Assembly (NCBI GenBank): GCA_030430425.1
Contig: JAUIFS010000001.1
Coordinates: forward strand, 5,992 to 69,991
Direction: 5' to 3'
DNA: 64,000 nt
Source: a bacterium
Lineage (GTDB): Bacteria > Patescibacteriota > Minisyncoccia > Phycocordibacterales > UBA918
In this document: positions 1-38,613 of the stretch, piece by piece
How the letters are laid out: every line of letters begins with the position of its first letter
Position numbering within the stretch: position 1 is the first letter of the stretch
Translations under genes and position numbers: made by a program
Notes under the pieces: generated by a model
Database searches by the model: none
What the model saw: the letters and a program-made list of their open reading frames with translations, nothing else
Told to the model about the DNA's origin: nothing

Positions 1-829
1 TCAACGATCGGAGAATTTCGAGCTTGGTGGTGTATGACTTCCCTGCTCCAGAAGTTGCAAAGGTTACCGAGTTGTAGTTAGTCAGCTGGTATCGGTCAAA
101 GAGTACCAATGAAGAGTTGTGTCGATTGATACCGTAGAGGATACCTGTATCAGAGGTCAGGTCAAACGAGGTAAAGGGAAAGAAACTTGAAAGTGGCGAA
201 GAGTTGAACTTGCTGTGTACCATCAACTGGTCGTCCATAAACGGCAACGCACTCTTCATGCCTTGTTCTTGTTGGAACTGGGCTGGTTTGATGTAAATAA
301 GACGTGAGTCAAGAATGTTTTTTATTTCATTTTCCGTTTTGTTGAGTTTTGACTCGTCCTCGCTGTAGATGGTCATGTAGAGACCCACATTAAACAACTT
401 CTCCTCTGCTTGTTGGAGCTTATCGCGCAGGTCTTCAAGGTTGCGATATGCAGCTTCTAGCTGCGGGTCACGCACCATACCTTGCTCGGCACGACTGTTT
501 ATTTGGCTTTGTACCTCAGCTACTTTTTTTTGGAATTTCTTAAGAGTACTTGCGGTATCGATTGGGTGTACAAAAATAGATACATCCATTTCTTTTTCCA
601 TATCGAGAATTGGCTCAAGCCACCCATCGTTGAGATATCGTGGATAGGAAATGGTGAAGAATGTACGAGCGTAGGTGCCGCTTATATTGATGGTTCGCTG
701 CCCTATTTCGATTCCAGACGGTGCAACGACGTCTTCAAGGGTGAGTAGCGCATGAGACACATCAGGAGTGTCTTCCTGAGTGGTGTTTGTTTTTTTTGCT
801 GCAGGTTGTAAAAAGTCTAAAAGCCCCAT
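1..829 (-). CDS. virB4: VirB4/TrbE/PrgJ-family type IV secretion ATPase, N-terminal about 276 aa; gene continues past window start
   Basis: Hand translation of minus strand from ATG at 829..827 gives MGLLDFLQPAAKK...VAPSGIEIGQRTINISGTYARTFFTISYPRYLNDGWLEPILD...DVSIFVHPID...SLVLFDRYQ...TSGAGKSYTTK (Walker A). The layout matches the central region of Gram-positive VirB4 homologs (PrgJ/TcpF). No stop reached before position 1. Confidence 0.75.
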   Translation of the reverse strand, partial: MGLLDFLQPAAKKTNTTQEDTPDVSHALLTLEDVVAPSGIEIGQRTINISGTYARTFFTISYPRYLNDGWLEPILDMEKEMDVSIFVHPIDTASTLKKFQKKVAEVQSQINSRAEQGMVRDPQLEAAYRNLEDLRDKLQQAEEKLFNVGLYMTIYSEDESKLNKTENEIKNILDSRLIYIKPAQFQQEQGMKSALPFMDDQLMVHSKFNSSPLSSFFPFTSFDLTSDTGILYGINRHNSSLVLFDRYQLTNYNSVTFATSGAGKSYTTKLEILRSL

Positions 830-871
830 ATGTCACTAGTATAACAGTCGTTGCGCGTACATCGGTCAGTA

Positions 872-1519
872 CTACCCACGTTGTTGTTCAGGAGCAGAAC
901 CGCTGATATCGGCAGGGTTGAAGATGTGGTAGTACAGCTCCACCAACGCCTCGTCTTCAAGCGCAATGGTACGCACACCGATGCGGTTCAGCCCTTGCTC
1001 TACCAGTGATGCACGTTGTTCCAGTTGCAGGCGGTGTTCCTCAAACGATGCGTCGTCTTGCTGCGGTGTTTTTTTGTTTCCGAGCACAGAACTTAAGCCA
1101 CTGCTGACGTTTTGCAACTCAACTCCGCGAGGTGAATACGGGATGACAATAAAAAAGTTTTTACTCATGACGTCTACCTCACTGACAAAACTTTTAATGA
1201 AATCGATGTACTCACGCAGCTGGATACGCATAAGGTCGTTATCTTGTTGCGGTTCGCGCGCACGTAGTTGATCGAGGTACGGCTCAATATCAAGCCGTCG
1301 TGATTGGATATAGAACTGAATGGAGAAATCGAGTGTGTTGAGGAATGTTTGGAATTGCCCGAGGATTGCCCGCTGTTCATCGAGCGACTTTAGTGCGAAG
1401 TTGATGGATGATGCAAGCAGAATACTACACATACGACCATCTTTCATAATCACGACATTTTGTTTAATGTCGCGGATGGGAACAAACTCCTGTGTTGTTT
1501 TTTGTTTTTGTTGTGCCAT
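872..1519 (-). CDS. VirB4 N-terminal-domain-like protein (215 aa), same frame as downstream ATPase ORF but separated by stop codons
   Basis: FVPIRDIKQNVVIMKDGRMCSILLASSINFALKSLDEQRAILGQFQTFLNTLDF resembles the N-terminal CagE/TrbE/VirB4 domain of PrgJ-like proteins. Ends at TAG 872..874. Confidence 0.6.
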   Translation of the reverse strand: MAQQKQKTTQEFVPIRDIKQNVVIMKDGRMCSILLASSINFALKSLDEQRAILGQFQTFLNTLDFSIQFYIQSRRLDIEPYLDQLRAREPQQDNDLMRIQLREYIDFIKSFVSEVDVMSKNFFIVIPYSPRGVELQNVSSGLSSVLGNKKTPQQDDASFEEHRLQLEQRASLVEQGLNRIGVRTIALEDEALVELYYHIFNPADISGSAPEQQRG

Positions 1520-1520
1520 A

Positions 1521-1952
1521 TTATTCAGCTTTTTGTAGTGCAGTTAGTTCAAGTTTTCGCGATAGGCTATTGATACCGCCTCCGTTGCGGTGTGGTGTCG
1601 GGATGTTTGTGGGTGTAGCACTTTTTTCAGGTATGTTTTCACTTTGATAGACGTTTGCGTTGCGTTTTCTCCAGTAGTAGATACGCGTTGAACCATAGAA
1701 CGTAATTGCCGACTCGAGGAAAATAGAAAAGGGGCGGTTATTCACTGGGTAAAACGCAAGCAGTGCAGCAAGCCCAGCAGCAGGAAGTCCAATAATTGCA
1801 AAGAGTATTTTTGAGGTGATAAAGGTGATCACTGCAATACCAATACCGCCACAAAGATACACAAACTGCCGCCAGGTGAACGGACCAAAAATCTTATCTT
1901 CAATTTCAATAAACTGAGGAACTTCAAATCGCATATTGCTTGTATTATACAT
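1521..1952 (-). CDS. PrgI/VirB3-like small membrane protein of T4SS (trimmed from the 237-aa track ORF)
   Basis: MRFEVPQFIEIEDKIFGPFTWRQFVYLCGGIGIAVITFI motif followed by two TM helices, typical of the PrgI family. The long form overlaps upstream gene 2023..2808 and the hairpin at 1993..2021, so the start was moved to the internal Met (1952 or 1934). Confidence 0.45.
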   Translation of the reverse strand: MYNTSNMRFEVPQFIEIEDKIFGPFTWRQFVYLCGGIGIAVITFITSKILFAIIGLPAAGLAALLAFYPVNNRPFSIFLESAITFYGSTRIYYWRKRNANVYQSENIPEKSATPTNIPTPHRNGGGINSLSRKLELTALQKAE

Positions 1953-1992
1953 GCTCTGTGCCGACGCGGGAGAGAAACTGTGCCCAGGCACT

Positions 1993-2021
1993 AAAAACCC
2001 TAGGATTATCCTAGGGTTTTT
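1993..2021. terminator. palindromic hairpin aaaaaccctaggattatcctagggttttt
   Basis: Perfect 10-bp stem flanked by an A-run and a T-run, between gene 2023..2808 and the PrgI-like gene. Confidence 0.5.
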
Positions 2022-2022
2022 A

Positions 2023-2808
2023 TTACTCATCGGTGTAGGTTGGTTTTTCAACCAGTGGCGGTTTCTCTGTAAGCAGATCGTCCTGTGATGCACTACGGAT
2101 AACTTCCTCAGTATGTTCCTGCTGCCCTGCTTCGTCAGGATAGAGGTCACGGTACGCACCATAACCATGTATACGAGAAACATCAGTGGGCATGCTACGC
2201 ATGGGTTGTACGTCTTTATATGCTTCCACTTCACTCGGCAGCTCGTTTGAAAACGTAAGCGGTTGTGCTTCTGGAAGTTCTGCAGAAGGGATTGGTCGTT
2301 CGTTTGATGTTTCTGCTGCGGGTGTTGTGTGTGCTATCGGTATGTTTGTTGGTGCAGGTGCAGTTGGCGCAGTTTGCATAGGAGTTTCTGGTGCGGTCAT
2401 GTCTTCAGGAGTATCTGGCACCTCGTCTGCTTCACCGTGTATTGCTTCTTCACGCAATGCTTTAAAGTTTTGTTGGAGCTCTTGCAGTCCCGAACGGTCC
2501 GGCTCCCCTTCCTTGCGCTCACGGTCTTCAACTGGTTTGAGAAACTCTGAGAGTTCAGAGAGGATGCGTTGTGCCTCATCTGCACTCACCCCTAGTTCTG
2601 ACTGGAGTTTTGCAGGGAGTTCAATCGTTTTATAGATACCGAGGATGGTGTCACCGATAAGGTACGTCAATATGTCTGATTTAGTGGGTGCTTGTGTAGG
2701 ATTAAAAATAGTTTCTAATTTTTGTCCAAGTTCAGGAGAGTTGTACACATCCCAAAGAGTGTCTGAAAGAAGGTGTTTTTTGTTTCTTCGCAGTTCTTCT
2801 AAAGTCAT
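2023..2808 (-). CDS. acidic Pro/Thr/Ala-rich hypothetical protein (261 aa) inside T4SS module
   Basis: Long ORF with a low-complexity acidic C-terminal half (PAPTNIPIAHTTPAAE...). No recognizable family. Confidence 0.5.
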   Translation of the reverse strand: MTLEELRRNKKHLLSDTLWDVYNSPELGQKLETIFNPTQAPTKSDILTYLIGDTILGIYKTIELPAKLQSELGVSADEAQRILSELSEFLKPVEDRERKEGEPDRSGLQELQQNFKALREEAIHGEADEVPDTPEDMTAPETPMQTAPTAPAPTNIPIAHTTPAAETSNERPIPSAELPEAQPLTFSNELPSEVEAYKDVQPMRSMPTDVSRIHGYGAYRDLYPDEAGQQEHTEEVIRSASQDDLLTEKPPLVEKPTYTDE

Positions 2809-2816
2809 ATTGTTTC

Positions 2817-5294
2817 TTATTTACCAAATGATTTACCCCCTGGAGATTTAAGCCAATTGATTATTTCTACTCCCCGCTCAGTTTCTCTGGATGAGGCATT
2901 TGCTGGTAAATTGTTAACATAGTTTTCTAAGTGGGTACGAATATCTTTTTGGGCTGATACGTCAAGTTCTGCAAAAGCTTTTGATTTAATAACTGATTCA
3001 GGTAGTGCTTCAACAAAATCTTTTTCTTTGAAAGCACCTTTTGGCAACTTTGCAATATCTCCTGCCTTTCTTTTCAGAATATTGGCTCTGGTTACCCCAT
3101 CTACTACTCCGCCACGCACCACTTTGAGAACAGCCTTTTCGTGTTCTTGTTTCAGGGTATCTTTATGTGCTTCAACCATCTTTAGTTTGTCGATCTTGTC
3201 TGTGGACAGATGGATTATGTTTTCTTCTTTTTGAAGTTCTTCGAAGCCAACAGCATTAAGCTCATCTGTACTTGCTTTTGCAAAACCTTTTCCAGGTTTT
3301 GCAGCGTCTCCTTTGATATACTTTACGGTTTCTTTTTTGTGTGCTTTTTGAATTTCACCTGTTTCAGTTTCACCAACATCGTCGCTCTTTACAATTGCTT
3401 CAAGCTTAGCAGGGGTTAAGAGGTGGGCATTGTTCATAATAGCTTTACGCCCGTCCTTAGTTTTTGCAATTTGCATAAGTTGTTCAGAAGTTGCGTTTTG
3501 GAATGCTTGTTGACGAGTCGCTTCGTCTGATGAAGACATGTCAGACTGTATCTTTCTTCTTGCAACTGTTGCTGTGTGTTTTTTAGATTCAGCCTTGTCT
3601 GCATCAACACGTTCTTTCCGTGAACCAGCAACACCAAAAGAAGCACTTTCCCCCTTTCCAACAAAAGAACGCATTGCACGTCGTGCGCGAGAGCGAGGTT
3701 TTCCTCGAGCATCATCCCGTGCATCCATCCGTTTCCCTTGCCAATTTGCAGCTTTACCAACGGCAGCACTTGCTCCCCAGCTTGCTCCATATCGAGGTAC
3801 CCACGTTGCTCCATTTCTCATACGACGCAAAGCTCCCTGTGTGGTATTCATAGCAACATTTGCGCCTTGGACACTCATACTTTGTCCAACTTTTGTTGCA
3901 GCGATAAGGAAACCAACTCCAATTGCAAAGAAGAGAAAAATAGTGAAGGTGTCTTTTGTCCATGTTTCACCAATAGAGCTAGCATATTTCCCTGTCCCCA
4001 TTGTCCCTTTTAATTGGATCATAGTGTAGAGACCAATATAGAGCATAAAGATATACGCCGGCGCAAAAAAAGCATAGCCAATAAACTTTTTCCACCACAT
4101 ATCAGAGTACTGCTTGAAACTAGGCAGTACCCACCCAAGGAACATGGCAGGAGAGAAGATCATAAAAATAATCAATGCAATAAACCGAGACACAAGCATG
4201 AGCCCGCCAAATGCGAGTGTCATCCCGAGAATAATGGAGAATAGGAGTACCATAATAGAGAACAATACAACCTGCCCGACTTCTTTCAGCGGATTTCCTG
4301 AAAACCAGCTTGAAATACGCAATGTCTCCATGTATGCAGACGCGATGCTCTTACCGTCAGCTGTGTAGCCTCCCCCGGCGCCTTGCGAGTTTACCGCGTC
4401 ATCTCCATCGAGGGTAACTTCACCTACTTCAAAACCATACGTTCCTTTGATACCTTGCGTTGCAACTGAGTGTATTGCAACTGCAGTATAGTTTGCAACG
4501 TCAACAATAACTTTTGTGAAATAGAGACTGAAGTTGATCAGTAGTGCGGCAACAATCAGCCACCCAAGTGCACGTTGAGTGCCAGTATCATCAGCAGAAA
4601 GGATTGTTTTTAAACCAATCCATACGAGCGAAAAGATGAAAAGAATGTTGAAAAGGTCGCGCACCACTGTCCATAGTGCATTTACGACCGCACCTAAAGA
4701 GCCATTACCTGCACTTTCTGCACAACCTTGTCCTCCATCTTTTACAAACCAACAACCCATTTCGAGTACCACTTTCTGTACCGCAAGGTCAAAAATGCTC
4801 CCACCAAGTGCTATCACCCATCCGCCCATTGCTACAGAAATATTGTATATCTTACTCTCTGTTTCATCGGCATTAACAGCATTTGTTTGTTGTGAGGCAT
4901 GTTCAGCAGCTGCAGCAACTGCGTCAGGGACATCTGCTGAGGTAAGTCCTGTTCCGGTGTCTTGACCCGGGGTAGATGGGTCAGAGGTACCGTCTGAGCC
5001 ACCACTTGTGTCGCCAATTCCTGTGTTGCCGGTACCTCCAAATGCATCAATTTCATCTTGAGTCCCATCGCCTGCTACACCTCCACAAGGGTATGGGTCA
5101 CCAAAGGCGTTATAACAAGTAGATTGTGCCTGCGCCGCCTGTGGTAGTGATAGAAAAAAATAGGAAACAAAAAAGAGACATACAGCAAAAACAACGAATA
5201 TACGCAAAAAGAAGTTCATATGACGCTGCATGAACATACCCATATAGGTCTTATTGTACCCTGTTTTCTGTTGTAAGAAACAGTATCTCCCCAC
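2817..5294 (-). CDS. VirB6/TrbL/PrgH-like polytopic membrane protein (825 aa) with signal peptide, Gly-rich segment and long charged C-terminal tail
   Basis: N-terminal hydrophobic signal (LFFVSYFFLSLPQAAQA), then at least 6 predicted TM helices (e.g. VVLFSIMVLLFSIILGMTLAFGGLMLVSRFIALIIFMIF) and a roughly 350-aa K/R/E-rich tail. It sits immediately upstream of the PrgI-like and VirB4 genes, as prgH does before prgI-prgJ. Confidence 0.5.
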   Translation of the reverse strand: MGRYCFLQQKTGYNKTYMGMFMQRHMNFFLRIFVVFAVCLFFVSYFFLSLPQAAQAQSTCYNAFGDPYPCGGVAGDGTQDEIDAFGGTGNTGIGDTSGGSDGTSDPSTPGQDTGTGLTSADVPDAVAAAAEHASQQTNAVNADETESKIYNISVAMGGWVIALGGSIFDLAVQKVVLEMGCWFVKDGGQGCAESAGNGSLGAVVNALWTVVRDLFNILFIFSLVWIGLKTILSADDTGTQRALGWLIVAALLINFSLYFTKVIVDVANYTAVAIHSVATQGIKGTYGFEVGEVTLDGDDAVNSQGAGGGYTADGKSIASAYMETLRISSWFSGNPLKEVGQVVLFSIMVLLFSIILGMTLAFGGLMLVSRFIALIIFMIFSPAMFLGWVLPSFKQYSDMWWKKFIGYAFFAPAYIFMLYIGLYTMIQLKGTMGTGKYASSIGETWTKDTFTIFLFFAIGVGFLIAATKVGQSMSVQGANVAMNTTQGALRRMRNGATWVPRYGASWGASAAVGKAANWQGKRMDARDDARGKPRSRARRAMRSFVGKGESASFGVAGSRKERVDADKAESKKHTATVARRKIQSDMSSSDEATRQQAFQNATSEQLMQIAKTKDGRKAIMNNAHLLTPAKLEAIVKSDDVGETETGEIQKAHKKETVKYIKGDAAKPGKGFAKASTDELNAVGFEELQKEENIIHLSTDKIDKLKMVEAHKDTLKQEHEKAVLKVVRGGVVDGVTRANILKRKAGDIAKLPKGAFKEKDFVEALPESVIKSKAFAELDVSAQKDIRTHLENYVNNLPANASSRETERGVEIINWLKSPGGKSFGK

Positions 5295-5375
5295 GTTGAC
5301 AGCTTTGTGTATGTGGGTTTATACAAAAGCGGTCACCGATAGGTGGCCGCTTTTGTATATAGGGTATGTAATTTA

Positions 5376-6848
5376 CTAATCGTCGTTGCAAGAGAGCTTT
5401 AAGAGATCAATTTGTTGTTTAAATGTTCCAATCTGTTGGGTAATTTCATAGTCAATGTGTATCTTTAAAAGATCATTTTCTGCAATATCTACCACACGAC
5501 CCCTAGACTTGAGCTTGTTGTACTCATTTATAATACTCGTTTGTTCTTGCGGGTCGGTTGATGCGTCAAAGCGGTTGCGTAGTGCGATAAGTTCGGGGAG
5601 TACTTGCTGTGAGTTCAGCTGTGCCAAAACCGCATTTGCACGTTCGGTACGTAAGCCGTTGGGTACTTCAGGGATAACGCATTTTTGATTGAGCTTTGCA
5701 GTATTGTCTCGATAGGTCACCAAGTCATCTATAAGTGTGACAATCTTTTTTTGCAACGTGATGTGTTTTTGCTCACGCGTAACTGCAGGACCAATTGGGT
5801 TTTCAATGCTTCCCGCTTCGGTTCCTTCGTCTTTAAGACTGTCTAAGAATGATCGCCCGTCACTTCCTTCAAAAGAAGTGTCGGTGTATTCTGAGCTGCC
5901 GAGTCCGAGCAGTCCGTTCATGCCGGTAATTGCTTGTTGCGCAAGTTGTGCAAAGAACGCCCCGATGATCTCATTGATTTCGTCTGCTTCAATAAGTGCA
6001 TCTTGTCCTGCACCGAGTGACTTATTGACTTGGTCAGCAATAACCTGTCCTGGCGTGGTGATATCACAGTCAGTTTGTGCTCCACTTGCAACGTCGGTGT
6101 CGCTACATACTTTGAAGGATAAGAATCCATCTCCCCAGTCAAGTTCTCGTACGGTATTTCCTTCTGCATCAGCAATACGTGCGTACATTTCTTGTTCCGC
6201 AGCAAGGTATGCTCCGGTCGGCGTGTTGATAGGGTTTTGGGTGACTTCAAACCAGTTTTGTGGATTGTAGGAATCCCCCGCGAGGAATCCTTCTATATTG
6301 TCAGCAACTCCACTGAGGGTACATTGTGCTTCGCTGCCAAACCCCTCATGTGTTTCTTCTTGGTAGGTAGTGGCAAGTGCAATTTTTACGTCGAGCTGGA
6401 ATGGACTACATAAGAAGTTAAGTGCAGGATCATTGTATATAAAGTCGCCTACTAGTGCGTCTGCTTGGTCAAGTAAGAACTGCTTGAGGTCGGTCACAAA
6501 CGCAGGACTTCCTTGGAACCCGGAGTTAATCCAGTTGAGGATACTCTGGGTCATGCTCTTGAGAATCATTTTTGCAAGTGCATGTGCAATTGGGTCGAGT
6601 GAAAGTTCTTTTAAAGCTAGAGATGTCTGCAGTCCTGCAATGGTGGTGTTTGCGCCGGCACTAATGGTGTCTTGTACCGTACCGTTACCTCCAATGACAG
6701 TTACTGTATCGCCTGTGCCTAAGAATGCATGTGCTTTCTGTACCTGTGCATCAGGGGTTATGGGTGTAAATCCAACACTGACAAAAACAAGTATGAAGAG
6801 TGAAACTCCGCTTATAGATTTTTTTAAAAAAGAACGTGGATATTTCAT
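5376..6848 (-). CDS. secreted hypothetical protein (490 aa) with N-terminal signal peptide
   Basis: MKYPRSFLKKSISGVSLFILVFVSVGF... signal-like N-terminus; no recognizable domain. Co-oriented with the T4SS module. Confidence 0.6.
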   Translation of the reverse strand: MKYPRSFLKKSISGVSLFILVFVSVGFTPITPDAQVQKAHAFLGTGDTVTVIGGNGTVQDTISAGANTTIAGLQTSLALKELSLDPIAHALAKMILKSMTQSILNWINSGFQGSPAFVTDLKQFLLDQADALVGDFIYNDPALNFLCSPFQLDVKIALATTYQEETHEGFGSEAQCTLSGVADNIEGFLAGDSYNPQNWFEVTQNPINTPTGAYLAAEQEMYARIADAEGNTVRELDWGDGFLSFKVCSDTDVASGAQTDCDITTPGQVIADQVNKSLGAGQDALIEADEINEIIGAFFAQLAQQAITGMNGLLGLGSSEYTDTSFEGSDGRSFLDSLKDEGTEAGSIENPIGPAVTREQKHITLQKKIVTLIDDLVTYRDNTAKLNQKCVIPEVPNGLRTERANAVLAQLNSQQVLPELIALRNRFDASTDPQEQTSIINEYNKLKSRGRVVDIAENDLLKIHIDYEITQQIGTFKQQIDLLKLSCNDD

Positions 6849-6859
6849 ACGCAGAAGTA

Positions 6860-7660
6860 CTAATTGTTTTCGTTAATACTGATAACACTATAGACAACCG
6901 AGTTGGCGTTCCAGGTGATACCTTGGGTAACTAGTGTTGCATAGAGTCCGTTAAGCGATACAAGCAGGCCGGTAGCATCATCTTGATAGCGTTTGAGTCG
7001 CAGCAGTGCGAGCATGGGGTCGGAAAAGGCATTACGCATAGCAGTGATGTCCGAAAGAATTGCTTGGTAACTGTTGAGTAGTGCAAGGTGTTCTTGCACC
7101 ATGCTGCTTGGTACTGAAAGGTTTTTTGTGGTGTCTACATACTGCGAGTATGCGTCGATCTTTGCATCGAGTTTTTTAAGATCATCACCATTTTGGGAGC
7201 GCAGTGCTTGCACAAGAATGTCTGTTTCTGATTGTGTGCCGTCTTCAGAATATGAAACGACAATAGATGCGATCGCTTCTCCGTATGCGGCTAATGCCTC
7301 AGGAGAATTGTTGGTGGTGATTACAATGTCTGCAGGGGTAAAAAGTGTGTCAGTAGCTTCCTGTGCAAGTGTGTCTGCAGCATTGGCAACAAGTTCATCA
7401 GGCGCGGTGCCGAATGCTCCATAGTTTTCAGAGCGTACAATATCTTGGAAGAAGTCGAGCGCAAATTGTTCGGTTACGGTCTCAGGAGGTACGTAGTCTG
7501 CACCGGGTTCACCTGTTATTGCAAGTGGCTCAGTAATCTGCAACGCTTCCTGCCAATCAGGAACACCGTCCCCATTTTGATCTAGTTCGGGGAGTGCTCT
7601 TCGTTCAGGTGCGAAGAAAAAGTGCACCGGAGATAAGGACTGCGGTAAAAAGTAAAGCAA
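6860..7660 (-). CDS. hypothetical protein (266 aa); possible N-terminal signal anchor encoded in another frame upstream (7606..7688)
   Basis: Track ORF starts at TTG. An ATG at 7688 opens MSASQKRISLALLFTAVLISGALFLRT* in the +1 frame across a T5 run, suggesting a frameshift or sequencing error. Confidence 0.5.
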   Translation of the reverse strand: MLYFLPQSLSPVHFFFAPERRALPELDQNGDGVPDWQEALQITEPLAITGEPGADYVPPETVTEQFALDFFQDIVRSENYGAFGTAPDELVANAADTLAQEATDTLFTPADIVITTNNSPEALAAYGEAIASIVVSYSEDGTQSETDILVQALRSQNGDDLKKLDAKIDAYSQYVDTTKNLSVPSSMVQEHLALLNSYQAILSDITAMRNAFSDPMLALLRLKRYQDDATGLLVSLNGLYATLVTQGITWNANSVVYSVISINENN

Positions 7661-7795
7661 GTGAAATTCGTTTCTGTGATGCAGACATATGAACTGTATA
7701 CATATATAAGTATACCAGCGGATCGGTGCTGGTGGCTTAGTGTGTGTATGAAGCTGTGGTTAACTCAGTGGATAACGCTGTATACAATATATGTA

Positions 7796-8620
7796 CTACT
7801 GGTGTGCGGACAGTGTAGAAGTTAATGTAAGCCATTTTTCAAGAGGTACATCCTCTGCACGTGCTGAAACAGGTATCGCTGCTGTTGAAAACATGTGTAT
7901 AAGTGCTTCTCGTGGGTATTGTTTTGCAAGGTTGCCAAGCAACTGCTTACGTTTTTGTCCAAAACCAAGGTGTAATACGTTGAAAAACAAGGTCTCATCG
8001 ACAGTTTTGAAGTTGTGCCGGTTAATGTTTCGTATCGCGATAATACCAGAATCTACTTTTGGAGGTGGCGTGAAGTGACCCCTTGAAACTGTCTTCACAT
8101 AGGTAGGGTTTCCGTATGCCTGCACCGAAAGAGAGAGGAGTGACTCTTTCTCCCCTCTCGAGATGTTACTACATGCTCGTTTTGCAACTTCTTTTTGCAC
8201 TAAGTACACAAGATCTGTTGGTTGTGTATCTAATTCTAAAAAGGTGCGAAACAGAAGCCCCGACAGATAATACGGTATATTGGCAACGACTTTAAAGTTA
8301 CGTTCAGCAATCTGCGGTAGGTCCGTACGCGCAAGCGTGCGCACATCGCGGTGCAATAGTATCAATTGTTTTTGTGTAAGGGCGTCTGCAAAAGTATCTT
8401 GGAGTACTGCAATTGCACGCGTGTCTGCTTCGAGGGCGATCACTGTTGCGCCGCGAGAAAGTAGTTCTTTAGTGAGCACTCCAGTCCCCGGACCAATCTC
8501 AAGGACAAGATCATCTTTCTGTACGTCTGCTGCATCACACATCCAACCAGGAACGACTGCACTGGTAAGAAAGTGCTGCCCGAGGGATTTCTTCGCATCA
8601 ATTTTTTTGATATCTACCAT
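7796..8620 (-). CDS. rsmA: 16S rRNA (adenine1518/1519-N6)-dimethyltransferase RsmA/KsgA
   Basis: LGQHFLTS..., VLEIGPGTGVLT SAM-binding motif, about 270 aa. Confidence 0.9.
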   Translation of the reverse strand: MVDIKKIDAKKSLGQHFLTSAVVPGWMCDAADVQKDDLVLEIGPGTGVLTKELLSRGATVIALEADTRAIAVLQDTFADALTQKQLILLHRDVRTLARTDLPQIAERNFKVVANIPYYLSGLLFRTFLELDTQPTDLVYLVQKEVAKRACSNISRGEKESLLSLSVQAYGNPTYVKTVSRGHFTPPPKVDSGIIAIRNINRHNFKTVDETLFFNVLHLGFGQKRKQLLGNLAKQYPREALIHMFSTAAIPVSARAEDVPLEKWLTLTSTLSAHQ

Positions 8621-8709
8621 ATGCGCCTACAGTACGTAATCTTCAAGCATAATGCAACGCGTTAGAGAGAACCATACTATCTCAGTTAACTGAGATAGTT
8701 GTCGGTTGT

Positions 8710-8749
8710 ATGCAAAAACGTGCGGCATGTATGCCGCACGTTTTTGCAT
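8710..8749. terminator. 40-nt perfect palindrome atgcaaaaacgtgcggcatgtatgccgcacgtttttgcat
   Basis: Immediately downstream of the helicase gene end (8753, minus strand); A-run/T-run flanks. Confidence 0.6.
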
Positions 8750-8752
8750 AGG

Positions 8753-10732
8753 TTAGTCGAGGAATACTGTTGTTTCGTATCCTGAGGTTCCCGCGTTTCC
8801 AAGCAGTCCCCCGCTCCCTTCTGTGGAGGTGCTGATTTGCACGTACTTGTTACTTATGTCGTTAAGGAAAGAAGAAGGAACGTTTACACGTTGTTGCCCA
8901 AAGATGGTGCGCATATGTGCGTAGGTAAGAAAAAGTTTTTTTTCTGCACGAGTGAGCGCAACATAGAACAGTCGGCGCTCTTCTTCTTCGTCAATACCGG
9001 TATTGTCCAAACGCTCATGCGGGAAGAGTCCTTCTTCCATACCAGTGATAAAGACATACGGGAACTCAAGACCTTTTGCAGCATGTACCGTCATGAGACG
9101 TACTGCGTCTCGGTCTTCTTTTTTCTGAAGTTCGTCTTGGTCACTCTGGAGCGCAGCATTTTCAATAAGTGCCTCCACACCCTCTTCAGGACCAAGCTCA
9201 TCGTAGCGTACTGCAAGGGTGACCAGTTCCTGCAGGTTTTCTAGGCGCTCAAGATCTTCTTCAGTACCATGTTTTTTTAAGTCAGCTTCAATTCCGGTTC
9301 GTGAAATGATGAACTTTAGTGTCTCTGAAATCTTTTCGGTTCGTGCATGATCGGCAATGTCTTGCATCATCGCATCAAAGCGTTCTACCTTCTCAAGCGT
9401 TGCACCTTTGAGTTCATCGCGCCTGCCCTCAAGTACTTTCAGCATGGTTACTTTCCCGATTCCCCTTGTGGGGGTATTGATGACACGGGTGATGTCCGCC
9501 GTACTCCCTGGGTTTAGTGCAAGGCGAAGGTACGAGAGTATATCTTTGATTTCTTTTCGTTCAAAAAACTTTGTACCTAAAAGTTGATAGGGGACGTTAA
9601 AGTTTAAGAATGCTTCTTCAAGTATGCGTGATTGAAAGTTTGTGCGATACAGTACCGCAATTGAGGAAGGAGAAGCACCGTCCTCAATGAGTGCCTGTAT
9701 GGTCATAACGATATACTCAGCTTCATCGTAGCCTGAGCGTGCCGCGTGGAGGGTTATTTTTTCTCCCTCTTTGTTTGAAGTGAATACGTTCTTCGGAATA
9801 CGATTTGTATTTTTCTCAATAATGTCATTGGAGGCCCCAATAATGGTTCCTGTTGAACGGTAGTTTTCTTCAAGGAAGACACTTTTTGCACCTTCAAAAT
9901 TATTTTCAAATTGCAGTACATTTTTTATGTCTGCCCCACGCCAAGAATAAATGTTTTGGTCGACATCTCCTACAACACATATGTTGTTATGTGCCTGTGC
10001 GAGTAGTTTAATGATTGCGAACTGGACTTTATTGGTGTCTTGGTATTCATCAACATGAATATAGCGGTAGCGCTGTTGGAGTGTTTCTCGTACGGTTGGG
10101 TACGCCTCAAGCATGCGTAATGTTTTTAATAAGAGGTCGTCAAAGTCGAGTGCTTGATCTTGCGCGAGTGCTTTGTCGTAATGTTCCCATACTTCAGCAC
10201 AGACTTTTTCTGGGTACGATGACGCAGTTTCTAAATAGTCTGTTCGTGAAAGTGCATCACCCTTCGCACGCGAGATCATTGAGAGCATTTTCCGAGGTTC
10301 AAATTGCTTTGGGTCATATCCTGCCGTTTCGATTGCTTTTTTGATTGCTCGATTGCTGTCACTACGATCATAAATGGTGAAATGTCGTGGGAGGTTAACG
10401 GTTGCATGGTGTTCACGAAGTGTCCGCACTCCAAACGCATGAAAGGTAGTGACAGTAGGTGTTGAATCGACACCTGCTCGGCTGCTTTCGGCGTAGGTGG
10501 CGATGAGTGCTTGTACGCGCTCACGCATTTCGGTAGCTGCTTTGTTGGTGAAGGTAACTGCAAGGATGTTGTGAGGAGCTACACCGTTGAGGATAAGGTG
10601 TACGATACGGTGGGTGATCACACGTGTTTTACCTGAACCCGCTCCTGCGAGCACAAGAAGGGGTCCTTCGGTAGTGGTAACGGCTTCTTTTTGTGGATCA
10701 TTTAACTCGGCTATGTGTGCTTGTTCTGACAT
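8753..10732 (-). CDS. uvrD: UvrD/PcrA/Rep-family ATP-dependent DNA helicase
   Basis: LLVLAGAGSGKTRVITHRI Walker A, VDEYQDTN, and the other superfamily 1 helicase motifs; 659 aa. Confidence 0.9.
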   Translation of the reverse strand: MSEQAHIAELNDPQKEAVTTTEGPLLVLAGAGSGKTRVITHRIVHLILNGVAPHNILAVTFTNKAATEMRERVQALIATYAESSRAGVDSTPTVTTFHAFGVRTLREHHATVNLPRHFTIYDRSDSNRAIKKAIETAGYDPKQFEPRKMLSMISRAKGDALSRTDYLETASSYPEKVCAEVWEHYDKALAQDQALDFDDLLLKTLRMLEAYPTVRETLQQRYRYIHVDEYQDTNKVQFAIIKLLAQAHNNICVVGDVDQNIYSWRGADIKNVLQFENNFEGAKSVFLEENYRSTGTIIGASNDIIEKNTNRIPKNVFTSNKEGEKITLHAARSGYDEAEYIVMTIQALIEDGASPSSIAVLYRTNFQSRILEEAFLNFNVPYQLLGTKFFERKEIKDILSYLRLALNPGSTADITRVINTPTRGIGKVTMLKVLEGRRDELKGATLEKVERFDAMMQDIADHARTEKISETLKFIISRTGIEADLKKHGTEEDLERLENLQELVTLAVRYDELGPEEGVEALIENAALQSDQDELQKKEDRDAVRLMTVHAAKGLEFPYVFITGMEEGLFPHERLDNTGIDEEEERRLFYVALTRAEKKLFLTYAHMRTIFGQQRVNVPSSFLNDISNKYVQISTSTEGSGGLLGNAGTSGYETTVFLD

Positions 10733-10983: not shown

Positions 10984-12165
10984 ATGGTCCTTTTTACATG
11001 CAACGGAAGCAACAATACCGTAACGGGCGCAACACGGCGGAGAGACCATAACCAAAAACGTATAAAACAGATTTCACAAGACCCTGATCCCTCAAGTAGT
11101 CAGCGCATGAGTGCGCGCGATGATCAGGATACATATATAAGTAGCACTTCGGCTCGGGCGACGATTTTTGCCTCAGAGCTCATTCCTTTACTTGCAGTGC
11201 TACTGATCCCCTTTTCTGTGCATGCAGGAGTTTTCTCTTCAATGGCGCAGTTTTTTATAGAATCAGAAACCACTGAAGTTGCACGTGCTGAAGTTGATTA
11301 TTCAGCCCGCTACACGCCACTGCTTACCGCAACCATACAAGCCGATCCACAAAAAGCGATTGGTGGTGGTGACCTTGCGGTGTCTGACGGCGCACTTGTT
11401 TCTACCGGTCCGGTTGGTGAAGATGAAATAGCAGCGTCAAGCGCAAGCGCTGGAGAAATCAGCGTGTATGTCGTACGTGAAGGTGATTCGCTATCACAGA
11501 TTGCTGAGATGTATAACGTCACTACTAATACTATTTTGTGGGCAAACGATATTTCACGTGCAAGTGACATTCAGCCGGGCGACACACTCGTTATCCTCCC
11601 TATTGTGGGAGTGCGTCATGTAGTTGCTTCTGGTGAGACCCTTGGTTCTCTCTTAAAGAAATACGATGCAGATCTTGACGAGGTGCTGGCGTACAACAAT
11701 CTTTCTGAAGACGCAGTGCTTGCTGTTGGTGATGAGTTGATGATTCCTGGTGGTGAACTACATACACCCCGTACTGTTGCAAAACGACCGGCACCAAGTA
11801 AGTCTCGTGGCGCTACTGGCGGCGGAGGTTTTTCTCATCCTGTGCCTGGTGCGGTGCGTACCCAGGGTATTCACGGATACAACGCGGTTGACCTTGCTGC
11901 AGGTCACGGAACTGCTATCCGTGCCGCAGCAGCAGGAGAAGTTATTGTGTCTAAGGCAAGTGGTTGGAATGGCGGATACGGACAGTATATTGTAGTGCGA
12001 CACAACAACGGTACACAGACACTCTATGCACACCTCAGTGCAAACAACGTTGGTGTTGGTGCATGGGTTGGATCAGGACAAGTTATTGGTGCAATGGGTA
12101 ACACGGGTAAGTCCACGGGAACGCACTTACACTTCGAAGTACGTGGAGGAAGCAACCCCTTTTAG
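10984..12165 (+). CDS. LysM-domain M23 family metallopeptidase with N-terminal membrane anchor
   Basis: Strong SD aagggagga 5 nt before the ATG. Two LysM repeats (GDSLSQIAEMYNV..., GETLGSLLKKYDADLDEVLAYNNL) then M23 motifs HGYNAVDLAA...HLHFEV. Confidence 0.85.
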   Translation: MVLFTCNGSNNTVTGATRRRDHNQKRIKQISQDPDPSSSQRMSARDDQDTYISSTSARATIFASELIPLLAVLLIPFSVHAGVFSSMAQFFIESETTEVARAEVDYSARYTPLLTATIQADPQKAIGGGDLAVSDGALVSTGPVGEDEIAASSASAGEISVYVVREGDSLSQIAEMYNVTTNTILWANDISRASDIQPGDTLVILPIVGVRHVVASGETLGSLLKKYDADLDEVLAYNNLSEDAVLAVGDELMIPGGELHTPRTVAKRPAPSKSRGATGGGGFSHPVPGAVRTQGIHGYNAVDLAAGHGTAIRAAAAGEVIVSKASGWNGGYGQYIVVRHNNGTQTLYAHLSANNVGVGAWVGSGQVIGAMGNTGKSTGTHLHFEVRGGSNPF

Positions 12166-15330: not shown

Positions 15331-17199
15331 TTACTGACCTATCAAAGGGAGTAGCTTTACAAATGTTTCTGAGTCAGGAGTAATCAGAATCATGTTTTGC
15401 TTTATAAAAGAATAGATGAGTCGCTCAGAGTTTGTTGCATCGACCAAGACGCGTGCGCTCTTGTTTGCAATGACCGTATCTCTAAAGAAGGCAGTGCGTA
15501 TTTGGGTGTCTGTTCGAGCGTATGGGTCATACGATTCTGATACGGGTGAACCAAACAATGGTGAGAGGTCGCTACTGAGCACGGGTTCCCACTGCAACAT
15601 ACCTGCAAAACTCGTGTCAAAATTAGTTGTTTGTATAAGTATGAATGGTTTTGTGCCATCAATACTGCCGAACATTATTTCTGAAATATCACGTGTGAAT
15701 GATCCTGGTGTACGCAACGCCAGTGAGTTGAGGATTGTTTGCGCATCAGCAGGAATGGTTTTTCCAGACGTATCTTGCATTGTTGGGTATATTTGTATGG
15801 TTTCACGACTTGTCAGAGACGCGTTAAGTATTGACTGGAATGTGGCATCTTTACTGGTGTGTAACGTCACCGGAATTTGCTGTGTGGTTTGTAGTAATGA
15901 AGGAATACGGATTGGTGCCGCTTGTTCAGCTGGCGTGGAACCCATAAACATGTAGACACTTGTTCCGATACCAAGTAAAGAGGCACCAACAATAACAAGC
16001 CCATAGATATATATCGGTACTCGAGATGGTCTTGTAGCTGTTTGTGTTTCGGCAGAAGGTTGTAGGCGAGGAGTTTTTGTCTCAATTGGTTTCTTTTGCA
16101 GCACTGGTGTTGCTACAGGATCTGCTTTAGGTACAGCTGAAACCGGTGGCGTGTTGGACACTGCTGTTTTTGCTGCAGGAGGCTGCGTAACGTTGCGTTG
16201 GACCGTAGAGGGTGTTTCCGCAACCGGTGTCGGTGTTTTGGTTTCTTCCTTTTCTTGCGCACGATCAAATACCGGCTTTGGCGGTGGACCTTGTGCAACA
16301 ACACGTTCTTGCAACAGTGTATCAATAGGGTCTGCGACCTGTTCTTCAGGAACTGCTGCAGGAGCATTTTCTTGTTCAGGCATTTTTAAGGTGCGTACAT
16401 CAACTGGAGTTTCGTCGGTGGTATGTGTCCAGGTGGGAGCAGGTACGTCTTCTTTTTTCTTGATACCAACACTTGTTTTGGGAGCTTCTCGTTTTTTTGT
16501 GGTGAGTCGTTTTACCGTAATGCCGTGATCATTTTGTGGCACGTGATAACTGGCGCGTGCTGCTGCTGCAATAGTTGCAATACGCGTTTCTGCTTTACTG
16601 ACCATGTGTTCAGGTTCTTTTTGTTTGGTGAGTATTTCTTTTTTTGTGCCAAACCAATTTTGAAGCGATGCTCCAATTGCAGGCAATAGCCGAAACTTCT
16701 TTCTTTTTTTGTTTTGGATGATGGTTCCCTCTACTGCATCGTCATGGAGAGAAATATTTTGTGGTGCCTGGTTCAGCGTTGTGGCATCTGAAAAATTCCC
16801 CTCAATCTGTGCAACTTCATTTGCTAATGTTGTAGTATCAACAACAAGTTTTTTGGGTTTTGGTGCAGATGCAACAACTTCTGCCGCAAGCTTTTCTTTA
16901 CTCAAAATCTCCTCTGCTTTTGAAACAATAGGCGCAGCTTCTTTTGGAACAGGCATCGTTGCGTCACTTGCAGCAAGAAACTCTGAGGACTTTTTTACTT
17001 TCTCTCTTTTTCGATCAAGTGCTGCTTGCGGGAGCTTTGTTTCTTTAGGAGTGGCAAGAATAGCGTCGGTGCGTTGTTGTACCGATTTTTCTTCTTGTTT
17101 GAGTACGGGACGATTAGGCACTTCTTCACCACGTGCGCGTAGAGCGTCAGTGGTATAGGTGCGTATACGTGCAATGGAATGATCATTCCCTGTTGTCAT
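15331..17199 (-). CDS. hypothetical bitopic membrane protein (622 aa) with long Pro/Ala/Thr/Lys-rich cytoplasmic region and about 200-aa extracytoplasmic C-terminal domain
   Basis: Single TM segment (PIYIYGLVIVGASLLGIGTSVYMF). The N-terminus is low complexity; no family recognized. Confidence 0.55.
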   Translation of the reverse strand: MTTGNDHSIARIRTYTTDALRARGEEVPNRPVLKQEEKSVQQRTDAILATPKETKLPQAALDRKREKVKKSSEFLAASDATMPVPKEAAPIVSKAEEILSKEKLAAEVVASAPKPKKLVVDTTTLANEVAQIEGNFSDATTLNQAPQNISLHDDAVEGTIIQNKKRKKFRLLPAIGASLQNWFGTKKEILTKQKEPEHMVSKAETRIATIAAAARASYHVPQNDHGITVKRLTTKKREAPKTSVGIKKKEDVPAPTWTHTTDETPVDVRTLKMPEQENAPAAVPEEQVADPIDTLLQERVVAQGPPPKPVFDRAQEKEETKTPTPVAETPSTVQRNVTQPPAAKTAVSNTPPVSAVPKADPVATPVLQKKPIETKTPRLQPSAETQTATRPSRVPIYIYGLVIVGASLLGIGTSVYMFMGSTPAEQAAPIRIPSLLQTTQQIPVTLHTSKDATFQSILNASLTSRETIQIYPTMQDTSGKTIPADAQTILNSLALRTPGSFTRDISEIMFGSIDGTKPFILIQTTNFDTSFAGMLQWEPVLSSDLSPLFGSPVSESYDPYARTDTQIRTAFFRDTVIANKSARVLVDATNSERLIYSFIKQNMILITPDSETFVKLLPLIGQ

Positions 17200-21244: not shown

Positions 21245-22159
21245 ATGAAGCTTTCGCAGCTAAAACGAGAATTTTTAGAATACTTAGAGATTGAACGGGG
21301 GCGTTCGTTGAAGACGGTTGAAAACTATGAACGGTACCTCACAAAGTTTTTAGCATTTGTAAAAACCGACTCCCCTTCTAAACTAACCGAAGAGCAGGTG
21401 CGTGAGTTTCGCCTCTACCTCAACCGACAACCAGGAACAAAAGTTGGTGGTCGCATGGAACCAATGAAGCGAAAGACTCAGAACTACTACTTGATCGCGG
21501 TTCGCGCTTTTTTGAAATACATGCGTAAGCGTGGAATCGAATCGCTCAACCCCGAACGTATTGAGCTTGCGAAAGTAGCAGAGCGTTCACTTGACCTGAT
21601 TACTGCACAAGAACTCGCGCGCCTTATGAAAGCACCTGACCAAAAAACAATTCAGGGGTTGCGTGACTATGCTATTTTGCAACTTCTTTTCTCTACCGGT
21701 TTGCGTATCTCTGAACTTACCGGACTTTCTATCGATGACGTTGACCTTTCGCGTGACGAATTTTCAGTGCGTGGGAAGGGTGAGAAGATCCGCGTGGTCT
21801 TTCTTTCGGAAGAAGCAAAGAAAGCGATTCGGGCATACCTCGGCGCACGGAAGGATATGCATGATGCGCTCTTTATTCAGTATGGGAAAAATGCAAAGAA
21901 CGCTGCTGACCTCCGGCTCTCTCCTCGCGCCGTACAGCGGATGCTCAAAGCCTGCGCAGCTCAGGCAGGTATCACTCGAAAGGTATCGCCACACGTTATT
22001 CGTCACAGCTTCGCAACTGATCTTCTGCAAAATGGTGCAGACCTTCGTTCAGTGCAGGCACTTCTTGGTCATGCAAACATTGCAACCACACAGGTCTACA
22101 CACACGTCACAGATAAGCACTTAGCTGAAGTACATAAAAAGTTTCATAGTAAAAAGTAA
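21245..22159 (+). CDS. tyrosine site-specific recombinase, XerC/XerD-like
   Basis: 304 aa; N-terminal SAM-like core-binding domain; catalytic R...HxxR...Y region (RHSFATDLLQNGADLRSVQALLGHANIATTQVYTHV). Confidence 0.9.
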   Translation: MKLSQLKREFLEYLEIERGRSLKTVENYERYLTKFLAFVKTDSPSKLTEEQVREFRLYLNRQPGTKVGGRMEPMKRKTQNYYLIAVRAFLKYMRKRGIESLNPERIELAKVAERSLDLITAQELARLMKAPDQKTIQGLRDYAILQLLFSTGLRISELTGLSIDDVDLSRDEFSVRGKGEKIRVVFLSEEAKKAIRAYLGARKDMHDALFIQYGKNAKNAADLRLSPRAVQRMLKACAAQAGITRKVSPHVIRHSFATDLLQNGADLRSVQALLGHANIATTQVYTHVTDKHLAEVHKKFHSKK

Positions 22160-22193: not shown

Positions 22194-23540
22194 TTACTCG
22201 GTTTTTTCTTCAGATTCTATAATTTCTGAATCATCTTCAGGGTCGCCAAAGTATTTTTCACTGATCCTGGCTAATTTGTCATATATTTTTACACGAATAT
22301 GTTCTGGTAGTTGGGTGATCAAATCTTGGAACGCTTCGTAGAAAGCGCTATTTTTTGAGAAAGACTTTACTGAAAGCTGGGTTTGTAATTCTTTAACAAG
22401 CAGTCTTCTTTTTTTAAGTTCAATGTTGGGCATATGTTCGGATAGGATATCTACAAATGAATTAGGAAGATATGTACCGTTTTGTACATATTCTTTGAAT
22501 ACACTGTTAAGAATTACCTCTTCAGGGATATCGGCTATGGCGCTGATAAAAGCAATGTATTGTTCTGCAACACACATTTCGTTTGTATAGCCAACTTTTG
22601 TCTCGTGTAAGATACTGTCCAGATACGTGTTTTCAAAGTGATTGCGTGGGCACTGTGTGAGGTACGTTCGTGCCATACGTAGCGAGATCAGCTGTGTTAT
22701 TGCCTCGTTGATTCCCCTTCCTTTTTCTGTGATGTATCTCTCGGTTATTAACACTTGGTCTGACTCTCGAAGGACAAGTGACTGTTCCTCTCTTTCAACT
22801 TGCAGACCGAGAGCCCGGTAGTGAGAGTGGTCTGGCATGCTCGTATTTCCTGTGTCAGTTATTGCGTGGAGCTCTTCATGAATAAGAGAATGTACCGTTT
22901 TGATCCAGCCTAATATATCATCAAAATGTGCCCTTATTTCTTCTTCGTTCTCGTCTAAATAAGTTTGATCCGTAGCCATTGCTCGCACCTCAGTTGTGGT
23001 AACTGGAGGTTTCTTCTCTCCATGAATATGTTGGGCTATCATTTCACGTATCAGACCATGAGATTTTTCTTTAGATTTGGAATGATTCCATTTTATAAAG
23101 ACACGAGTGTGGTTAATATAATTCTGCAATGCAACCAAGTGTTGATCATTATAGAGTATTTGTGCGTTAGTAGATGCCGATTTAGAAAGTTTATATGCAT
23201 TAAGTGTAATAAACTTATTTAAGTTGTAGGTTGCATTAGATGTGTCGGTGTCCTTACCTTTTTCGATTATAATTTTTGCTTTTGGGATAAAGCGATTCAT
23301 GCATGAAATGACTCCCGTTGTTCCAAGGCTCTTACGTAGTTCTTGAAGAAATATATTGCGGACTGCAGTTTCATTTATATCATCTAAGTATCCGGCGATT
23401 TGTTTCATTTCAGGAGTGTCTTCAATTTCTTCAATGGATACATCTAGATCATCAAAAGCAGATTCAGCTTCAGGCGAGTAATTGCCGATAGGTTTTTGAG
23501 GGAAACGTTCACCTTCCATAATGTATTGATTATACCGCAC
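22194..23540 (-). CDS. hypothetical protein (448 aa) with HExxH zinc-metallopeptidase-like motif; AT-rich
   Basis: SLIHEELHAITD is the only recognizable motif. Composition is lower in GC than the flanks; convergent with the recombinase. Confidence 0.6.
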   Translation of the reverse strand: MRYNQYIMEGERFPQKPIGNYSPEAESAFDDLDVSIEEIEDTPEMKQIAGYLDDINETAVRNIFLQELRKSLGTTGVISCMNRFIPKAKIIIEKGKDTDTSNATYNLNKFITLNAYKLSKSASTNAQILYNDQHLVALQNYINHTRVFIKWNHSKSKEKSHGLIREMIAQHIHGEKKPPVTTTEVRAMATDQTYLDENEEEIRAHFDDILGWIKTVHSLIHEELHAITDTGNTSMPDHSHYRALGLQVEREEQSLVLRESDQVLITERYITEKGRGINEAITQLISLRMARTYLTQCPRNHFENTYLDSILHETKVGYTNEMCVAEQYIAFISAIADIPEEVILNSVFKEYVQNGTYLPNSFVDILSEHMPNIELKKRRLLVKELQTQLSVKSFSKNSAFYEAFQDLITQLPEHIRVKIYDKLARISEKYFGDPEDDSEIIESEEKTE

Positions 23541-38020: not shown

Positions 38021-38605
38021 ATGTCCGGTCAGGGAAAGAACGACAACATAAAAGGGGACCACGAAGAGCGTTTTTTGAAAGCTTTCGAGGAATATAGCGA
38101 TGCTTTGTTTCGGCATGCATTTCTACGTGTGAGCGATCGTGAACGTGCCATTGATATCGTACACGATACGTTTACCAAAGTGTGGACCTATGTGCGCAAT
38201 GGACACGAAGTTGATCAGTTTCGTCCATTTTTATACAAGGTACTCAACAATTTGATTATTGATGAGTATCGCAAACGAAAAGAAGCTTCACTTGACGCAA
38301 TCATGGAGGTTGATGGTATAGATGAAGGTACGTTTGATGAACTTTCTGAGAATACGGTTGAGTCGCTGGCAGCAACTCTTGATGGGAAAAAAGCATTTGA
38401 GCTTCTGCAAGAGCTCCCCGATACGTATCGGGAGATAATCGTGCTGCGTTTTGTAGATGAGTTAGGACCAAAAGAAATAGCGTCACTTACCGAAGAAACG
38501 GAGAACGTCATTTCCGTACGATTGCACCGTGGTCTGAAACTGCTTCGGAAAGCAGTAGAGGAAAAAGAAAAGGAGACACAAAAGAAACGAACAACAAAAA
38601 AGTAA
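38021..38605 (+). CDS. ECF-type RNA polymerase sigma-70 family factor
   Basis: Region 2 (DIVHDTFTKVW...LYKVLNNLIIDEYRKR) and region 4 (REIIVLRFVDELGPKEIASLTEETENVISVRLHRGLKLL). Confidence 0.85.
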   Translation: MSGQGKNDNIKGDHEERFLKAFEEYSDALFRHAFLRVSDRERAIDIVHDTFTKVWTYVRNGHEVDQFRPFLYKVLNNLIIDEYRKRKEASLDAIMEVDGIDEGTFDELSENTVESLAATLDGKKAFELLQELPDTYREIIVLRFVDELGPKEIASLTEETENVISVRLHRGLKLLRKAVEEKEKETQKKRTTKK

Positions 38606-38613
38606 CATATACA

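Follow-up and report, generated by a model that had tools for sequence, protein, structure and literature searches.

A probable type IV secretion operon of the Patescibacteria clade, with three genes of no annotated family

The window examined here is a stretch of 64,000 nucleotides (nt) of a Patescibacteria genome (assembly GCA_030430425.1, contig JAUIFS010000001.1, positions 5,992 to 69,991 of the forward strand). At its left end, in positions 1-7690, lie seven co-oriented, closely packed minus-strand genes of a type IV secretion system (T4SS). In the direction of transcription these are gene A, gene B, a VirB6/TrbL-like gene, gene D, a PrgI/VirB3-like gene, a TrsD-like gene and the gene of a VirB4 ATPase. 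The intergenic spacers from A towards VirB4 are 11, 138, 8, 88, 1 and 42 nt, the 138-nt gap between B and VirB6 having been recomputed with the VirB6 start at position 5237 (see below). An initial annotation, made from the letters of the stretch, had described seven such genes; their count, coordinates and descriptions were borne out by our analysis of the open reading frames (ORFs).

Positions 1..829 hold the 5' part of the VirB4 gene (276 codons). The gene starts at 829 and runs past the edge of the window, so the operon is incomplete here. The Walker A motif GAGKS is encoded at about positions 20-50, just before the edge. The fragment matched the NCBIfam model conju_CD1110 with 164 bits (E 4.7e-48, model positions 164-438) and VirB4_plasma, a model of the VirB4 of Mycoplasma integrative and conjugative elements (ICEs), with E 7.5e-37. 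It is 85-87% identical to full-length orthologs of 603-604 amino acids (aa) in two related loci, L001 and L004, which carry P-loop_TraG, AAA_10 and DUF87. In the NCBIfam scan the fragment had no FtsK match, and every strong match was to a VirB4 or TraC family. A full-length ortholog matched the HerA-type DUF87 (E 1.3e-06) far more weakly than P-loop_TraG (E 1.4e-25). This upholds the initial assignment of the ATPase to VirB4 rather than to FtsK or HerA. The window VirB4 resembles conjugative monoderm VirB4s most closely. By model scores and by identity to metagenome-assembled genomes (MAGs) of Paceibacteria it is of the monoderm, MPF-FATA-related type, alongside the VirB4s of Patescibacteria; across the Paceibacteria MAGs VirB4 is 68-96% identical.

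The gene in front of it (872..1519, 215 aa) encodes a protein that matched NCBIfam TrsD/TraD (E 1e-07). It also matched VirB4_plasma at positions 99-244 (E 4.3e-11) and conju_CD1110 at positions 2-121, and its orthologs carry the TraC-like family PF26593. As the TrsD-like protein takes up positions 2-121 of the CD1110 model and the following ORF positions 164-438, VirB4 is naturally split in two, and by these model alignments the TrsD-like protein is a stand-alone equivalent of the VirB4 N-terminus. We also considered whether the two genes are the halves of a pseudogene. This was ruled out because the two-gene arrangement is present in every relative and because the spacer between them contains four in-frame stops. 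Upstream follows a gene for a small membrane protein of 137 aa (1521..1934). It belongs to Pfam PrgI (PF12666; 35.7 bits against a gathering score of 27, E 1.3e-08), which disposes of the doubt, raised with the initial annotation, that it might fall outside this family. The PrgI/VirB3-like protein has a transmembrane (TM) hairpin with a hydrophobic segment at residues 43-61; its orthologs are 64-66% identical and align from residue 1.

The VirB6/TrbL-like polytopic protein is encoded at 2817..5237. The longest ORF, 5294-2817, comprises 825 aa, the length given at first; the identical NCBI protein (P0001) has 806 aa and hence we placed the start at 5237. At its N-terminus the protein has a TM or signal segment, followed by an external loop rich in Gly, Thr and Asp, some six TM helices and, at the C-terminus, an extension of roughly 340 aa which is basic and hydrophilic. 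An 'extended VirB6' type has been described (PMC12857230), and the long basic tail fits it. All 92 homologs of the protein were from Patescibacteria MAGs, and many have a precomputed match to PF19590 (TrbL_3) or PF04610 (TrbL). Upon re-scanning, 10 of 53 aligned family members (E 1e-21 to 1e-34) matched Pfam TrbL. P0074 scored 32.7 bits and P0065 26.1 bits at a cut-off of 25.9, and P0074 covered profile positions 17-212 of 215. In the window protein the matched region corresponds to about residues 207-446, the block of TM helices. The precomputed TrbL_3 match of the L001 ortholog was not reproduced in the Pfam scan, while TrbL was reproduced on other members. A search with the family profile against the sequences of the PDB yielded chance-level matches only. 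The proposed VirB6/TrbL homology thus holds by way of the protein's own family, members of which exceed the TrbL cut-off.

Upstream of VirB6 lie genes B and A. Gene B (5376..6848) encodes a Cys-containing protein of 490 aa with a hydrophobic N-terminal signal or anchor at residues 7-25. In more than 784 homologs the residues W106, N108, G110, F111, G113, P115 and F117 form an invariant core, and six Cys are conserved in at least 90% of the sequences. The conserved Cys fit an extracytoplasmic protein. The family is very large, with 5,613 clusters at 50% identity at E values of up to 0.001, among them 2,657 with E values of up to 1e-30, and no Pfam or NCBIfam model matches it. The family profile found chance-level matches only among PDB sequences. 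The structural model is predicted to be all-helical with a mean predicted local distance difference test (pLDDT) score of 66.8; it is confident only for residues 350-490, a C-terminal helical bundle, and a fold search with it gave no specific match. The position of B relative to VirB6 is that of virB5 and trbJ relative to virB6 and trbL in the Gram-negative virB and RP4 trb operons. A stalk or tip protein of the VirB5/TraC type (TraC structure, 1r8i) is a candidate role for B.

Gene A (6860..7688) had been reported as a secreted or anchored protein of 266 aa. As for the family, the anchoring is correct: the orthologs are intact, have 287-297 aa and carry an N-terminal membrane anchor. The 266-aa ORF of the window (7660-6860), on the other hand, is without an anchor owing to a 1-nt frameshift in a run of five T (A5 on the plus strand, 7617-7621). 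The anchor, MSASQKRISLALLFTAVLISGALF, is encoded from the ATG at 7688 in a frame other than that of the 266-aa body. A 1-nt change in the T run restores the frame. The NCBI annotation retains only a 255-aa remnant. The frameshift may be a true lesion or stem from the assembly. The protein is extracytoplasmic, and its model is all-helical, a predicted four-helix bundle. Gene A had no meaningful match in Pfam or NCBIfam, its family profile had chance-level matches only among PDB sequences, and none of the fold searches with the A and B models assigned either protein to a known T4SS subunit.

Between VirB6 and PrgI resides gene D (2023..2808), an acidic, Pro- and Thr-rich protein of 261 aa (51 Asp + Glu, 24 Lys + Arg, 26 Pro, 23 Thr). 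Neither a TM segment nor a signal peptide was found in it, and searches of Pfam and NCBIfam gave no meaningful match. In the D-type proteins a conserved N-terminal domain (about 105 aa) is followed by a disordered spacer, variable and acidic or Pro-rich, and by a short C-terminal motif, DPYRE in most relatives and PTYTDE in the window. In all related loci the VirB6 gene is upstream of PrgI with gene D alone between them; in divergent loci, too, this slot is always filled by a D-type gene, and the N-terminal domain is common to them. The DPYRE-type peptide at the end of a long disordered spacer resembles a docking motif (slot genes of L004, L045, L055, L073 and L080).

For comparison, one genome per species was scanned. 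A VirB4 relative was present in 564 genomes, and the best 80 loci, picked by VirB4 similarity, were analysed. They stem from Kaiser-, Nomura-, Campbell-, Adler-, Zambryskii- and Taylorbacteria and from 'Paceibacteria' MAGs. All homologs were from Patescibacteria or Paceibacteria MAGs, in agreement with the early suggestion that the genome belongs to the CPR type (candidate phyla radiation). The genes are colinear on a single strand in all 74 loci of other species-level genomes for which this could be tested. Median identities were 71% for VirB4, 60% for DnaA, 59% for UvrD, 54% for TrsD, 46% for KsgA, 40% for PrgI, 35% for B, 31% for A and 27% for VirB6, the VirB4 value being somewhat inflated by the choice of loci on VirB4 similarity. 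Judged by these identities, VirB4 is nevertheless at least as constrained as DnaA, the replication initiator. Colinearity and VirB4 conservation together indicated a core, vertically inherited locus and no mobile element or remnant thereof. The reading as an ICE or plasmid remnant was rejected for this synteny and conservation and for the base composition. The G+C content is even throughout the window, and the composition of the T4SS region is the same as that of the rest.

L001 and L004, whose VirB6 orthologs are 41% and 47% identical to that of the window, show the whole operon. Upstream are ComM, LysM/M23, UvrD and KsgA. The module itself runs from A and B through VirB6 (with TrbL_3) and a small variable gene to PrgI, a TraC-like protein (about 210 aa) and VirB4. 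After VirB4 a 3-TM protein is followed by a secreted one (about 325 aa), by one or two two-TM proteins of 265-309 aa and by a further secreted protein (about 391 aa) (L001 16130-21029; L004 15941-19657); these post-virB4 genes have no confident family assignment. The two-TM proteins are pilin-like with long C-terminal extensions and are duplicated in L001, where the copies are 89% identical over 157 aa. In these orthologous loci they fell below the threshold of PF18895 (T4SS_pilin; E 7e-5 to 2e-4, 21-23 bits against 26.6) and are regarded as candidates. The operon then abuts yidC-rnpA-rpmH-dnaA, and from the end of VirB4 to dnaA the median distance is 5.4 kb (n = 59 related loci). Since the operon of the relatives runs past VirB4, the window edge cuts the module and about five further genes are to be expected. 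The series does not end in VirB4, as had been assumed at first.

On the right the module is flanked by KsgA, a UvrD/PcrA helicase, a LysM/M23 peptidase, a phosphotransferase, ComM, a DksA/TraR zinc-finger protein and PNPase. Domain scans confirmed the two core genes named originally, ksgA and uvrD. They also confirmed that the window is devoid of relaxase and VirD4 as far as these can be recognised, because no VirD4, TraG or relaxase domain was found in any sizeable ORF of the 64 kb; neither was a VirD4 coupling protein or relaxase present within 10 kb downstream in the orthologous loci. A tyrosine recombinase at 21245-22159, 13 kb away among housekeeping genes, looks like XerC/D. Scanning for promoters and terminators was uninformative (6 promoter-like sites against 13.1 expected from shuffles).

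The cumulative GC skew of the plus strand climbs almost monotonically from 0.09 to 1.48 over positions 1-64000. This fits a single rightward replichore with the origin just left of the window. With the origin there, the T4SS genes would be on the lagging strand, transcribed towards the origin and head-on to replication.

The LysM/M23 peptidase gene (10984-12165, plus strand) is kept in conserved synteny, 3.3 kb away from the T4SS genes and on the strand opposite to them. It may supply the cell-wall hydrolase that the system lacks, in place of VirB1. VirB1-like hits in Patescibacteria with M23 and LysM domains were noted in the survey by Quinonero-Coronel et al. (2025, Microb Genom; PMC12102498).

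Together the genes code for that core of a monoderm (MPF-FATA-like) T4SS which resides in the cytoplasmic membrane, with an extended VirB6, PrgI and a split VirB4. Positions 1-7690 very probably represent the promoter-proximal two-thirds of a chromosomal, vertically inherited T4SS operon of the 'Patescibacteria clade' in a Paceibacteria-type (CPR) bacterium. The machine may work as follows. VirB4 hexamers, docked via PrgI and TrsD, would energise a VirB6-based channel and probably power the building of a short VirB2-like pilus as well. On its extracellular side the channel would be decorated by A and B, and D and the basic VirB6 tail would act on the cytoplasmic face. At the site of host-cell contact the machine would move proteins or other macromolecules in the service of a host-dependent lifestyle; it would not conjugate DNA.

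Several points weigh against this reading. The window's own VirB6-like protein has no direct match in Pfam or NCBIfam, and its homology is transitive via the family. Gene A is frameshifted in this assembly. That a 3-TM protein, secreted proteins and candidate VirB2-like pilins continue the operon beyond position 1 is deduced from the synteny of the relatives. The same synteny makes it most likely that the T4SS genes are about 5 kb from dnaA and the replication origin. By Pfam no VirB8-like protein (NTF2 fold) and no VirB1-like hydrolase was recognised in A, B, D or in the downstream orthologous genes. As ksgA and uvrD are just as syntenic, gene order alone does not prove that A, B and D belong to the system. 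Finally, the functional evidence stems entirely from one Saccharibacterium.

This T4SS is already published and the window holds one more ordinary copy of it. According to PMC12102498, the VirB4s of Patescibacteria form a monophyletic clade nested in MPF-FATA; TrsD is the most abundant associated component, next to PrgI/VirB3, VirB6 and VirB2-like pilins. Relaxases were detected in only 103 of 3,035 Patescibacteria genomes, VirD4-like genes are present in many, usually far from virB4, and the T4SS of Paceibacteria is located near dnaA, rnpA, ksgA and rpmH (PMC12102498). The window has in common with this clade VirB4 with an adjacent TrsD, PrgI/VirB3 and VirB6 in a chromosomal, relaxase-free locus next to ksgA. 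The pilin candidates and the neighbours rnpA, rpmH and dnaA are matched in the relatives of the window. Nothing essential differs, except for the frameshift in gene A of this copy. Among the components named in the parts consulted of that survey, the A, B and D families do not occur. A 2025 review recognises the T4SSs of Patescibacteria as a new branch of the superfamily (PMC12857230).

The homologous cluster SEML1_0006-0019 of the Saccharibacterium Southlakia epibionticum ML1 was essential for epibiotic growth by transposon sequencing (Tn-seq) (Wang et al., 2023, Cell; PMC10633639). Beside dnaA it comprises, in this order, genes for a VirB6-like, an NTF2-like and a second VirB6-like protein, PrgI, a TrsD-like protein, VirB4, a peptidase, a lysozyme and a pilin array (PMC10633639). 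The order VirB6-like, PrgI, TrsD-like, VirB4 is common to the cluster and the window, as is an extended VirB6 with a large hydrophilic C-terminal domain. With the Paceibacteria loci it further shares the place beside dnaA, pilin genes (candidates in the Paceibacteria loci) in the cluster and the lack of a recognisable coupling protein or relaxase. It differs in having two giant VirB6-like proteins, the NTF2-like protein, a PrgI of 300 aa, lysozyme and peptidase genes directly after virB4 and a divergent array of six pilins. In the window locus, in contrast, there is one VirB6, preceded by A and B; D lies between it and PrgI, and the downstream genes are others.

The canonical monoderm systems are similar in their core. 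In the enterococcal Prg/Pcf system of pCF10 the order is prgH (VirB6), prgI (VirB3), prgJ (VirB4), and the window matches it, as initially annotated, with D and TrsD inserted. In the staphylococcal Trs system of pGO1 a separate TrsD precedes the VirB4 homolog as it does here. The MPF-FATA monoderm architecture without VirB7, VirB9 and VirB10 is common to all three. Unlike in pCF10 and pGO1, no VirD4/PcfC, relaxase, origin of transfer (oriT), PrgB-type adhesin, PrgK-type hydrolase or recognisable VirB8-like PrgL was found; the VirB6 of the window is extended, and its locus is chromosomal, origin-proximal and vertically inherited.

Does the machine import DNA? By analogy with archaeal Ced or Helicobacter ComB, VirB4, VirB6 and VirB3 would draw host DNA or nucleotide polymers into the epibiont as a nucleotide supply. 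Archaeal Ced (CedA/CedB) likewise has a VirB4-family ATPase and a polytopic membrane protein and neither relaxase nor coupling protein, and these were not found near the present cluster either. ComM and UvrD are in the conserved flank synteny, and import of DNA or other macromolecules is what the authors of the survey favour (PMC12102498). However, Ced differs in its gene set, and the match of the CedB model NF041017 to the window VirB4 was insignificant (E 0.046, 12.3 bits against a cut-off of 700 bits), whereas conjugative monoderm VirB4s are its closest counterparts. No DNA-binding component was recognised among A, B and D. In S. epibionticum comEC-dependent DNA uptake is dispensable and the T4SS is essential (PMC12857230); therefore, the need for the T4SS is at least not ComEC DNA uptake. 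We regard DNA import as a doubtful, if conceivable, function. Much less credible still is a true conjugation or mobilisation apparatus with VirD4 and relaxase encoded elsewhere, or the decaying remnant of an integrated conjugative element, and we consider this very improbable. The core is, to be sure, homologous to conjugative MPF-FATA systems, many Patescibacteria genomes have the unlinked VirD4-like genes, and there is the tyrosine recombinase. Yet colinearity in 74 of 74 loci beside oriC with a VirB4 more conserved than DnaA is the opposite of a mobile or decaying element, and a compositional anomaly is absent. The recombinase is distant, amid housekeeping genes and XerC/D-like; relaxases are as rare in Patescibacteria as stated above, and the unlinked t4cp is not essential in S. 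epibionticum (PMC12102498).

A machine that moves proteins or other macromolecules at the site of host contact is preferred, and the question remains whether A, B and D are part of it. They may be unrelated surface or cytoplasmic proteins which are beside the T4SS merely through origin-proximal synteny. The equal synteny of ksgA and uvrD would agree with this, as would the fact that A and B match no known T4SS subunit by sequence or fold. Against it stand the single strand and the tight spacing (A-B 11 nt, VirB6-D 8 nt), the D-type gene that is always in the VirB6-PrgI slot, and B with its six conserved Cys and extracytoplasmic location, as for an envelope component. Moreover, the trio A-B-VirB6 is unbroken in loci whose ksgA flank has been replaced or interrupted (L045, L073, L080), and in L055, L072 and L074 B-like domains are within larger proteins beside VirB6. 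In L048 the A-B-VirB6 block is missing upstream of PrgI. There (positions 1-10000, a Patescibacteria MAG) PrgI-TrsD-VirB4 directly follow the PNPase, DksA-like, ComM and M23 genes, and uvrD-ksgA-A-B-VirB6 are absent from the usual place; VirB6 and its partners are therefore elsewhere or lost. As the trio is kept without the ksgA flank and lost as a block, A and B appear to travel with VirB6 and not with the housekeeping flank. This is circumstantial evidence that they are linked to VirB6. We consider chance neighbourhood unlikely; on conserved linkage alone it is plausible that A, B and D are lineage-specific T4SS components. Only tentatively do we go further and propose that they are Paceibacteria-specific subunits of a distinct, pilus-bearing monoderm T4SS subtype, with B as a VirB5 counterpart, A as a sensor or adaptor and D as a cytoplasmic adaptor.

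Elsewhere in the window a type IV pilus cluster was observed (54898-61778, plus strand) with a PilB-like ATPase of 607 aa (T2SSE + MshEN) and a PilC-like platform protein (T2SSF). It further has a 594-aa protein with CarboxypepD_reg domains and a 200-aa protein, both with an N-terminal methylation motif, and a protein of 469 aa without domain match (60369-61778, plus strand). In Patescibacteria the other machine known to serve host contact is the type IV pilus. Two large minus-strand ORFs have no Pfam match, 15331-17199 (622 aa) and 22194-23540 (448 aa); the 622-aa gene is beside the DksA-like and ComM genes in L004, too. At 38021-40155 (plus strand) an extracytoplasmic function (ECF)-type sigma factor of 194 aa is immediately followed by a 513-aa DUF5667 protein; this looks like a sigma/anti-sigma pair.

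The T4SS of the ultra-small Patescibacteria is near-universal in a huge uncultivated radiation, adjacent to the origin, without conjugation genes and, in the one organism tested, essential for epibiotic growth. The window leaves this known picture unchanged. Its value is modest and lies in A, B and D and in the constraint on VirB4. In Paceibacteria the VirB6 gene travels with genes for two conserved extracytoplasmic proteins and one acidic cytoplasmic protein that have no family annotation. These are concrete targets for further study, B in particular as a member of a very large family without a Pfam or NCBIfam model. If the tentative roles are true, B would be a helical protein stabilised by disulfides and seated on VirB6 as its platform, either at the base of a VirB2-like pilus or at its tip, and A would be an anchored four-helix-bundle sensor or adaptor. 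The DPYRE-type C-terminal peptide of D would dock on VirB4 or on the VirB6 tail and in this way stand in for the absent coupling protein. The three would jointly define a T4SS subtype for exchange with the host.

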